DNA from: Methanomassiliicoccaceae archaeon
GTDB taxonomy: Archaea; Thermoplasmatota; Thermoplasmata; Methanomassiliicoccales; UBA472
Direction of reading: 5' to 3'
Length of the DNA: 64,000 bases
NCBI GenBank assembly: GCA_963768775.1
Contig: CAVYIY010000007.1
Coordinates: 51,832-115,831 of the forward strand
Positions 41,050-42,350 of the stretch are shown here, one piece after another. Within the stretch, counting starts at the first letter, position 1. Each line of letters starts with the position of its first letter. The position numbers and the translations under genes are program-made. The notes under the pieces are model-generated. The model saw only the letters and a program-made list of their open reading frames with translations, made no database searches and had not been told where the DNA came from.

Positions 41050-41364
41050 TCAATACGCGCAGCAATCGGGGCCGCAGGTCGGCTCCTTCCTCCCGGTCAA
41101 AGCCGCACGGATCATCGCCGAGGCACAGCCGACGCCGCTGTCCACCTCGATCGCCGCGACCGGACAGTTCATCTTGCAGGCCCCGCACTCGATGCAGCCG
41201 GAGTGATCGGCCACTCTGACCTTGTCTCCGTCGGGCGCAAAGACGCCGTGCGGGCACACCTTGGTGCACATGCCGCAATTGACGCAGCGTTGCGGATAGT
41301 ACTTCAGCGTGTTCAACTCGTTGTCGACGATTTCCAAACTGATCGGCTGGTCGGTTATCTGCAT
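41050..41364 (-). CDS. hgcB: mercury-methylation ferredoxin HgcB
   Basis: Two CX2CX2CX3C motifs (CVNCGMCTKVCP; CIECGACKMNCP), a conserved GVGCASA segment and a C-terminal CC pair. ATG lies 5 nt after the hgcA stop. Confidence 0.85.
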   Translation of the reverse strand: MQITDQPISLEIVDNELNTLKYYPQRCVNCGMCTKVCPHGVFAPDGDKVRVADHSGCIECGACKMNCPVAAIEVDSGVGCASAMIRAALTGRKEPTCGPDCCAY

Positions 41365-41369
41365 CAGGT

Positions 41370-42350
41370 TCACGATAATACCCCCACCCACAGGGCAGCA
41401 GCTGCCAGGAGGACCGTCCCGATCGCGATCATTGCCACGAATACGGGGATGTAGCGGAATATCTCCCTCTTGACCCCGGTCCGGGAAGCTATCGGACTGG
41501 AGCCAGTGAAGTTCAGGGCCATGTAGGCGATCGGCGGTGCGATCAATAGCACCTGCGCCACCGCGGCGATCAAGCCAGCCAAACTCGAGTAGTAAACTCC
41601 ATACAAAACCTGAAGGAGAACGAACAGCGTGCCGCCCAGAACGCCCAATAAGAGCCCCTTTGAGCTGAACTGCCGGGTCGGAAGATAGGGCAGTAGCATC
41701 GGGAATAGGACCAACCCGAAAAGGGCCACGATCAAGACAGCAAGCGCCCCCGTGAGCCCTGCGAGCAGGGAGAGTATCAATGCAGCAGGAATCAGGAACT
41801 TCCAGTTATTGACGAACTCGACAGGCACCAAGACCATCCTGTCCCGCAAGGGGAAACGCACTCGGCGCATCTCCGAGGTGGCCTTACCCCCCTTCATGTA
41901 CTCTTTGATGTCATATGCGCGCACCGGGCCGTATTCCACCTTGAACCCGGACCTTCGCCTCACCTCGTGGGCGTTGACCCCGGGCGCTCCCAGCTGCGGC
42001 AGGATGAGGGTGCGCTGCTTGACCGCTTCCTTCAATCCGGTGGCTTCGATCCGCTTGACGATTTCTTCGGTGCCGAAGGTGCCCTTGCCCGCGGCGCACC
42101 AGACGTTGATGCCCTTCGTGTCCAGGATGAGGAGATGGGCATCCATGCCGGCCAGCGCCGAGCGCAGGGCGTCGAAGCTGAGGCTGTAGTTGCCGGTGAC
42201 GAAGACCGGGGAATCGGGGGTCGGACTGCCCAGCCGATAGAGGCCCGGTACAACCTTATGGCCCATGCGGTCCCACCCGAGGCGGGCGAGCCGATGGTCG
42301 CGCCTATTGGCCGAAGTGATCTCGCTGCTGGTGACAATGACCTCGCTCAT
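41370..42350 (-). CDS. hgcA: mercury-methylation corrinoid protein HgcA
   Basis: Cap-helix signature I-N-V-W-C-A-A-G-K-G-T-F-G-T (nt 42084-42110), flanked by VFVTGNYSLSFDALR and LILPQLGAPGV. The C-terminal half is about five TM helices. Confidence 0.9.
   Translation of the reverse strand: MSEVIVTSSEITSANRRDHRLARLGWDRMGHKVVPGLYRLGSPTPDSPVFVTGNYSLSFDALRSALAGMDAHLLILDTKGINVWCAAGKGTFGTEEIVKRIEATGLKEAVKQRTLILPQLGAPGVNAHEVRRRSGFKVEYGPVRAYDIKEYMKGGKATSEMRRVRFPLRDRMVLVPVEFVNNWKFLIPAALILSLLAGLTGALAVLIVALFGLVLFPMLLPYLPTRQFSSKGLLLGVLGGTLFVLLQVLYGVYYSSLAGLIAAVAQVLLIAPPIAYMALNFTGSSPIASRTGVKREIFRYIPVFVAMIAIGTVLLAAAALWVGVLS

Follow-up and report, generated by a model that had tools for sequence, protein, structure and literature searches.

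A putative hgcC-hgcA-hgcB mercury-methylation unit with a conserved repeat upstream of hgcC in an uncultured Methanomassiliicoccaceae archaeon

A 64,000-nucleotide (nt) stretch of contig CAVYIY010000007.1 from a Methanomassiliicoccaceae archaeon (assembly GCA_963768775.1, positions 51,832 to 115,831 of the forward strand), hereafter the window, very probably carries a mercury-methylation unit of three genes, hgcC-hgcA-hgcB, which HgcC would itself control; we consider this the best explanation overall. The listing of open reading frames (ORFs) between 38 and 46 kb of the window shows the three as closely packed minus-strand ORFs: hgcC stops 8 nt short of hgcA, and the hgcA and hgcB frames share 4 nt when hgcB is read from the GTG at 41373. 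An earlier note on this DNA, made from the sequence alone, had named the hgcA-hgcB pair; it overlooked the third gene, hgcC, and the order-wide arrangement of the unit beside the proline biosynthesis genes proBA. The features of the locus are as follows.

42669 to 42692, minus strand: putative operator, three tandem TTCTGAwww repeats with a 9-bp period, TTCTGATTA TTCTGATTT TACTGA
42656 to 42668, minus strand: TATA-like box ATATTACTAATAC, AT-rich, about 30 nt before the hgcC ATG, the presumed archaeal core promoter of hgcCAB
42359 to 42631, minus strand: hgcC, encoding a predicted 90-residue swapped-hairpin protein of the AbrB/SpoVT type, 8 nt upstream of hgcA
41370 to 42350, minus strand: hgcA, an intact 326-residue ORF, the predicted corrinoid protein of the mercury-methylation pair
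41871 to 42263, minus strand: predicted corrinoid-binding domain of HgcA, about residues 30-160
42084 to 42107, minus strand: cap-helix motif of HgcA, N82-V-W-C85-A-A-G-K89, with the Cys85 codon at 42096-42098
41376 to 41831, minus strand: predicted transmembrane domain of HgcA, about residues 174-325, 4-5 membrane helices
41050 to 41373, minus strand: hgcB, a predicted ferredoxin with two [4Fe-4S] clusters, 107 residues from GTG 41373

On the curated profile hidden Markov models that the earlier note had proposed as a check, HgcA scored 405.8 bits against a cut-off of 275 (NCBIfam equivalog NF040863), and HgcB 111.5 bits against 99 (NF040864). The hgcA ORF is intact, and the motif NVWCAAGK, singled out earlier as diagnostic, is unique in the window: its back-translated pattern has one match in the 64 kb and zero in 100 shuffles, and all eight residues are invariant in an alignment of 21 sequences (55-100% identity). 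The description of the N-terminal half as corrinoid-binding-like also held, with residues 32-154 matching the CFeSP/CdhD corrinoid domain; the sole Pfam match was the generic CdhD family (residues 32-128), and phmmer against PDB sequences aligned residues 33-153 with residues 320-440 of the Carboxydothermus CFeSP large subunit (E-value 1.5e-12). Counted along this alignment, in which tkginvwCaagkg faces tdgtsvlTawaag, Cys85 falls on Thr374 of 2h9a/2ycl, which would place it at the cap-helix position, as had been proposed. The equivalent position is a strictly conserved Cys in HgcA and absent as such from CFeSP, and its replacement by Ala or Thr abolishes methylation (Cooper 2020, PMC7305189). 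The AlphaFold2 (AF2) model of HgcA, built on the 21-sequence alignment (mean predicted local distance difference test score (pLDDT) 84.3, predicted template modelling score 0.74), had as its top Foldseek match the HgcAB model of Cooper 2020 (9a0b_A, the integrative complex model for Pseudodesulfovibrio mercurii (Desulfovibrio desulfuricans) ND132; 41% identity, E-value 1.6e-19), followed by the CFeSP chains 2ycl, 2h9a and 4djd at root-mean-square deviations of 2.8-3.0 A over 124 columns. The PDB sequence search with HgcA had returned CFeSP only, the integrative model surfacing in the fold search alone.

For hgcB, three in-frame starts are available, namely GTG 41391 (113 residues), GTG 41373 (107 residues, with a GTGA overlap) and ATG 41364 (104 residues). 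The 3' end of hgcA reads ...GTA TTA TCG TGA, and ATG 41364 begins 5 nt past this stop, where the earlier note had placed the gene; the gene itself stands and that start is a possible one. Close relatives begin a 107-residue hgcB at an ATG that shares 4 nt with the end of hgcA (ATGA), and in relative L081 the internal ATG of the window's hgcB is replaced by CTG. Because the start register is conserved in this way, hgcB most likely starts at GTG 41373 and would encode a 107-residue protein beginning MNLMQ, from which HgcB residues are counted here. Both of the cluster motifs reported earlier are present, each as CX2CX2CX3CP, at residues 30-41 (CVNCGMCTKVCP) and 60-71 (CIECGACKMNCP, with CIECGA from residue 60). 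Cys83 lies exactly 12 residues past Pro71 and is the equivalent of Cys73 in ND132, and the tail contains C100 and the pair C104-C105, which does not quite end the protein, as had been stated, but stands two residues before its terminus (...DCCAY). Two cluster motifs, an extra Cys and C-terminal Cys residues are the functionally tested features by which HgcB has been defined (PMC7305189).

The window pair also shows every mark of the Hg-MATE 'high-stringency' class (PMC10087281): the pattern N(V/I)WC(A/S)(A/G/S)GK, the pattern C(M/I)ECGA, and the presence of hgcA and hgcB on the same contig. On the strength of the curated models and these published marks, we assign the two ORFs as true, separate hgcA and hgcB mercury-methylation genes, in agreement with the earlier call. 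A neighbour-joining tree with CFeSP as outgroup and no bootstrap places the window HgcA in a Thermoplasmata/Methanomassiliicoccales clade, far from CFeSP. In the database search, 7997 of the 8000 scored candidates had E-values of at most 1e-5. The best non-self match is 82% identical; the tier at 73-82% is entirely metagenomic, with one entry named as a Methanomassiliicoccales archaeon, and the tier at 55-62% includes Methanoculleus, Methanoregulaceae, Methanospirillum, Methanosarcina and Methanomassiliicoccus. The genome sample seeded with HgcA contained no relative above 61% identity among the matches listed, and the nearest genomes came from exact-protein look-ups. HgcA and HgcC of Methanomassiliicoccus luminyensis B10 (GCA_000308215.1) are each 59% identical to those of the window, and this strain makes methylmercury (MeHg) in culture (PMC5893877).

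The third gene is recognized by its own model, HgcC scoring 112.4 bits on NCBIfam NF040962 ('HgcAB-associated protein HgcC'), whose cut-off is 70, as well as 36.7 against 24.7 bits on Pfam PF04014 (MazE_antitoxin) and 42.3 against 28.3 on TIGR01439. A family profile made from 27 homologues matches SpoVT (E-value 3.5e-5) and AbrB-family structures, and the invariant positions of the 27-sequence alignment comprise D29-R31-G32-Q33-x-V35-L36-P37-K38 and the pair C64-C65; two further cysteines, C11 and C13, lie near the N-terminus. By these profiles, HgcC is classed as a predicted DNA-binding protein of the AbrB/SpoVT type. In the genome sample seeded with HgcA, a homologue stands directly upstream of hgcA at 18 of 24 archaeal but only 3 of 56 bacterial loci among the matches listed, five of the bacterial loci being cut at a contig edge. 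This agrees with Zhang et al. 2023 (ISME Commun, PMC10349881), who were the first to draw attention to this prlF/mazE/abrB-like gene immediately before hgcA, found chiefly in archaea, and who described it as a putative archaeal regulator. No database entry is 100% identical to the window HgcC (best 91%), although the database does contain the window HgcA; hgcC, being small, may have been overlooked in the source annotation or given another start.

What would link HgcC to the control of the unit is the repeat block in the spacer between proB and hgcC, which immediately precedes the AT-rich promoter box and, past it, the hgcC ATG. The block occurs once in the window with 3 mismatches allowed (0 expected). 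In an alignment of this spacer with those of two relatives its 24 nt are perfectly conserved between diverging flanks, and they are 100% identical in loci L081-L084, whose proteins share about 75% identity. TTCTGA/TCAGAA cores recur by the TATA box upstream of hgcC, either repeated two or three times with a period of 9 bp or arranged as inverted pairs, in Methanoregula, Methanosarcina, Methanoperedens-type, Methanomicrobiales and Methanomassiliicoccaceae loci and in M. luminyensis (ATCAGCGAA ATCAGAAAA ATCAGAATT TTATATATA); in three bacterial lineages the repeats overlap the -10/+1 region behind a TTGACA box. The orientation of the repeats flips between lineages. TCAGAA/TTCTGA was the top de novo 6-mer upstream of hgcC, present in 20 of 23 regions against 3.5% of background windows, the core 5-mers numbered 46 against 6.8 +/- 2.4 in dinucleotide shuffles, and same-strand pairs at exactly 9 bp numbered 15 against a maximum of 1 in 500 shuffles, although the loci are phylogenetically related and the P-values overstate their independence. 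The 9-bp pair was found at 0 of 52 hgcA loci that lack hgcC, and 16 of the 17 matches to TCTGAN4TCTGA in 85 loci lay just upstream of hgcC.

Within the window alone, TCTGAN4TCTGA has 1 match against 0.31 expected, which is not significant; the significance of the repeat comes from its conservation across lineages. Conservation across orders and domains, independence of orientation and overlap with the core promoter together fit a protein-binding operator, and since the element travels with hgcC, the simplest reading is that HgcC most likely binds the TTCTGAwww repeats and autoregulates hgcCAB. We found no prior description of this operator, or of the link to the arsenite methyltransferase gene arsM considered below, in the literature searched, which omits most subscription journals. 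A 2328-nt contig of an uncultured bacterium (L050) has five TCTGA/TCAGA cores before an hgcA at 296, by the contig edge and with no hgcC visible; its regulator gene may have been cut off by the contig end.

In the mechanism that we propose, HgcA would be a membrane-anchored corrinoid protein in which, to judge from the homologous enzyme studied before, the Cys85 thiolate ligates cobalt ('Cys-on'), and the two-[4Fe-4S] ferredoxin HgcB would reduce the corrinoid to Co(I), readying it for methylation. The methyl group would then move to Hg(II) to yield methylmercury, with Cys83 and the C-terminal cysteines of HgcB handling the Hg(II) substrate and the CH3Hg+ product. The tight gaps between the genes suggest joint transcription, which would proceed from the AT-rich promoter upstream of hgcC. 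HgcC would bind the repeats abutting this promoter and autoregulate the unit; repression is the likelier direction of control because the repeats overlap core promoter elements. The invariant Cys-Cys pair of HgcC, along with its N-terminal cysteines, could form a sensing site.

Besides the relatedness of the loci behind the motif statistics, several observations weigh against this account. The AF2 monomer of HgcC is of mediocre confidence (pLDDT 70.5), and a Foldseek search with it gave no significant structural match (best E-value 0.54), so the AbrB assignment rests on the sequence profiles. In HgcA, residues 82-89 have a pLDDT below 50 and no helix is drawn there, probably due to the cofactor missing from the model; the cap-helix assignment thus rests on the alignment and not on the model. 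As to the membrane helices, of which the earlier note had counted about five, the hydrophobic C-terminal half is clear, and a count of either four or five is plausible: AF2 draws four long helices (174-222, 228-249, 257-281 and 293-325), with hydropathy cores at 189-218, 237-246, 261-272 and 303-322, whereas the hydrophobic stretch 185-224, at 40 residues, could accommodate two passes and the charge distribution (positive-inside rule) favours five. The TATA-like box of the window is weaker than those of its relatives, which are clearer (ATATTTATAC in L081, AAGTATAAATA in Methanoregula-type loci, TTTATATATA in M. luminyensis). No RNA sequencing run containing the locus sequence was found, and only three DNA runs, from freshwater sediment and soil metagenomes, share 5-9% of sampled words with the locus. 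Finally, among the 80 loci (L088-L167) obtained by scanning metagenomes with the HgcC alignment, the gene after the HgcC homologue was arsM in 48 and hgcA in 23, was lost at a contig edge in 5, and was neither of the two in the other 4. With arsM next to the family more often than hgcA, HgcC is no mercury-specific component; the NCBIfam equivalog name 'HgcC' is too narrow.

The arsM calls are secure, scoring 359 bits against a cut-off of 263 on NF008823, and the regulators directly upstream of them (for example at L113 2438-3580, L130 2438-4380 and L097 499-2085) score 126-128 bits on the 'HgcC' model NF040962; an ArsR/SmtB gene is often next after arsM. In Ca. Methanoperedens sp. (L015 4718-7249, JAPMTS010000003.1), hgcC-arsM-hgcA-hgcB form one co-oriented row. 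The arsM-linked and hgcA-linked HgcC proteins interleave in a tree, both keep G-x-V-C-C and the DNA-binding motif, and CTGA repeats lie upstream of both kinds of hgcC. In P. mercurii ND132, an ArsR-like, arsenic-responsive regulator controls hgcAB (summarised in PMC10349881), which, together with the HgcC-arsM linkage, suggests that methylating enzymes are under shared thiol-based metal(loid)-responsive control. Two Chloroflexi loci (L009 and L018) have arsM directly upstream of hgcA without hgcC.

These observations favour the alternative that survives best, namely that hgcAB are true orthologues whose mercury methylation is a side reaction, the unit belonging to a broader response to thiophilic metal(loid)s in which the Cys pairs of the HgcC family would sense As(III), Hg(II) or another, related thiol-reactive signal and switch on ArsM or HgcAB. 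We regard it as possible, though on balance unlikely. Profile scans covering about 38 of the roughly 65 likely genes of the window (nearly all between 25 and 56 kb, the other 27 or so being smaller or distal ORFs) found no ars genes, and likewise no merA, merB, merR, merT or merP, consistent with the earlier remark that no mer genes lie nearby. Sensing by cysteine ligands in HgcC is conjecture, and an association of gene order does not disclose the signal; moreover, a metal(loid) response would supplement, rather than replace, a mercury-methylation unit under HgcC control. We put forward with similar reserve a fuller form of the regulatory idea, in which the HgcC family (about 1700 database proteins) would consist of AbrB-type autorepressors that act on tandem or inverted wTCTGAw sites, 9-10 bp apart and overlapping their own core promoter, and that control arsM or hgcAB. 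The N-terminal Cys cluster would join the Cys-Cys pair in sensing As(III), Hg(II) or a thiol redox signal, and one regulator-operator cassette would serve two toxic-element methylation systems, occasionally both in one operon, as in L015.

Rather improbable, by comparison, is the idea that HgcC is not, or not only, a transcription factor and instead acts as a thiol metallochaperone or accessory subunit that supplies the methylating enzyme with Hg(II) or As(III), much as ArsD serves ArsA. The invariant vicinal Cys pair, the N-terminal Cys residues and the tight coupling of hgcC to the enzyme genes would suit this role, as would the statement of Cooper et al. that the HgcB cysteines acquire Hg(II) 'from an unknown source' (PMC7305189). 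However, the conserved core of HgcC is the DNA-binding looped-hinge motif of AbrB/SpoVT, and the conserved, orientation-independent repeat that accompanies hgcC at its own promoter fits a DNA-binding autoregulator. Furthermore, most bacterial methylators lack hgcC, and HgcC therefore cannot be essential for catalysis.

A type II toxin-antitoxin module of the MazE/PrlF type, with HgcC as its antitoxin and beside hgcA only by chance, is very unlikely, and we rejected this candidate since HgcC has no toxin partner: although the best Pfam name is MazE_antitoxin, JGI labels many homologues 'antitoxin PrlF' and Zhang et al. 2023 treat this type of gene as toxin-antitoxin-associated, the neighbours of hgcC are proB and hgcA, likewise in M. 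luminyensis and in related metagenome-assembled genomes (MAGs), the gene after the homologue is arsM or hgcA in 71 of the 75 assessable metagenome loci, and HgcC stays far under the cut-offs of the models for MazE, PrlF and other type II antitoxins.

Just as hard to credit, and already largely refuted, is the notion that the window ORFs are non-methylating paralogues, either of the CFeSP/CdhD type of the Wood-Ljungdahl pathway or of the fused HgcAB-like type. In its favour, Pfam gives only the generic CdhD for HgcA, many database relatives carry the source name 'carbon monoxide dehydrogenase', and the fused HgcAB-like model NF043039 still gives 218.9 bits on HgcA (51.4 on HgcB); its cut-off, however, is 285, and the CFeSP gamma model NF003195 gives 76.7 bits against 306, while the HgcA model is far over its own. 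The TGA stop at 41370-41372 parts hgcA from the hgcB ORF, leaving no single fused polypeptide, unlike the fused forms of, for example, Pyrococcus furiosus and Methanococcoides methylutens; fused forms tested in culture produced no MeHg (PMC10087281, PMC5893877). With the CFeSP large subunit (AcsC/CdhE; 2h9a, 2ycl, 4djd), HgcA shares a homologous Rossmann-like corrinoid-binding domain, but only the last approximately 120 CFeSP residues align; HgcA lacks the N-terminal [4Fe-4S] and TIM-barrel domains, has Cys85 where CFeSP has Thr, carries a transmembrane domain that CFeSP does not, and lies deep within the HgcA tree. The test against fused paralogues rests on the curated cut-off and the stop codon, the tree containing a CFeSP outgroup only. 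Elsewhere in the sample, hgcA occurs without a separate hgcB detected within 600 nt at L041 (5905-7251, Acidobacteriota), L027, L031 and L051; the L041 hgcA ORF, of about 448 residues, may be a fusion or extended form.

The genomic setting of the hgcC-hgcA-hgcB unit is shared with its relatives. The order proA-proB-hgcC-hgcA-hgcB is common to the window, three related metagenome lineages and M. luminyensis B10, and exact-protein look-ups show that related MAGs keep proA-proB-hgcC-hgcA-hgcB-GNAT-(paaK-like)-(ACT)-fpg. The proBA context of hgcAB is thus an order-wide conserved arrangement and no peculiarity of this window. The earlier placement of the pair between proBA and a GNAT gene is right as to the flanks, but the pair does not adjoin proB, as hgcC intervenes. 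The surrounding genes are archaeal housekeeping genes and include the following, grouped by function.

Central and amino-acid metabolism: PGK, GAPDH, aspartate kinase, lysA/dapF, proBA, aspartate dehydrogenase
Isoprenoid and RNA-repair functions: a mevalonate-diphosphate-decarboxylase-like gene, archease, Fpg
Proteases and small domains: TldD/PmbA, a CobW-type GTPase, CBS, Usp, a response regulator
Sulfur and iron-sulfur metabolism: NifU/IscS, with DsrE/TusA assigned solely by position in syntenic relatives
Transport: ABC transporters
36314 to 36955, plus strand: metallochaperone GTPase of the CobW/HypB/UreG type, about 5 kb from hgcAB, its position kept in related MAGs
35787 to 36221, minus strand: CBS-domain protein, about 5 kb from hgcAB, its position likewise kept in related MAGs

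The whole 64-kb window contains no match to Rfam families and no tRNAs. A sigma-70 promoter scan of 40800-42900 gave no match, as expected for an archaeon, and the two terminator-like matches are no more than chance would give. A perfect inverted repeat with an 11-bp stem (ATGCTCGATCGGTTCAATGATCGAGCAT, 42736-42763) straddles the proB stop codon; it was flagged on the plus strand only, and such matches are no more frequent than by chance. It may be a 3' hairpin parting the proBA transcript from hgcC. In the spacer between hgcB and the GNAT gene stands CATATCCAGGAATGGTACTGAGCGCG (window 40984-41006, minus strand), a block of roughly 27 nt with CCTAAATA after it, some 50-75 nt upstream of the GNAT start. 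The CATATCCAGGAATGGTACTGAGCGCG block occurs once in the window and also at L081 9350-9369, L083 9350-9369 and L085 1621-1640, being perfectly conserved in relatives with 73-76% protein identity while the remaining spacer has diverged; the block could act as promoter or operator for the GNAT gene, or else as a 3' element of hgcB.

Compared with the reference pair of ND132, the window genes have the same two-gene architecture, NVWCAAGK, corrinoid and transmembrane domains in HgcA, and two [4Fe-4S] motifs, the Cys73 equivalent and C-terminal cysteines in HgcB. The window differs in its archaeal host, in the 4-nt overlap of the hgcA and hgcB frames and in the upstream regulator, which is of the AbrB type (hgcC) here and ArsR-like in ND132. 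M. luminyensis B10, in addition to the shared gene order, has three 9-bp-spaced TCAGA repeats by a TATA box upstream of hgcC, in the orientation opposite to that of the window; its hgcB lies about 80 nt past hgcA with no overlap, and its downstream genes are others, with no GNAT/paaK-like/ACT block. The window lineage forms a clade separate from M. luminyensis, its closest database relatives being the metagenome sequences at 73-82% identity. HgcC has the looped-hinge motif D-x-R-G-Q-x-V-L-P-K of AbrB, SpoVT and MazE but differs from them in an extra C-terminal strand-helix with the invariant Cys-Cys, in its N-terminal Cys cluster and in having no toxin partner. ArsR- and ArsD-type arsenic sensors are likewise small cysteine-using regulators or chaperones encoded beside metal(loid)-handling genes, and vicinal Cys pairs in ArsD are As(III) ligands. 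ArsR has a winged-helix fold and ArsD a thioredoxin-like one, to which the AbrB swapped hairpin of HgcC is unrelated.

The hgcAB pair itself is ordinary for Methanomassiliicoccales-type archaea, and current annotation models name all three genes. The window adds one more uncultured lineage of this type to the probable methylmercury producers, which is useful for hgcA catalogues and unsurprising; related sequences occur in metagenomes of freshwater sediment and soil and in one or more Stordalen-type peat MAGs. The wider interest lies in the control of hgcAB expression and the native role of HgcAB, both long-standing questions in the field. With the conserved repeat before hgcC, the regulation of hgcAB becomes open to direct test in M. 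luminyensis B10, a methylator available in culture. That the HgcC family stands more often before arsM lends weight to the connection already proposed between the methylation of arsenic and that of mercury, and it makes 'HgcC' matches alone unusable as markers of hgcAB in metagenomes. If the family does consist of metal(loid)-sensing autorepressors, archaea would methylate mercury not constitutively but inducibly, as one element of a metal(loid) response.

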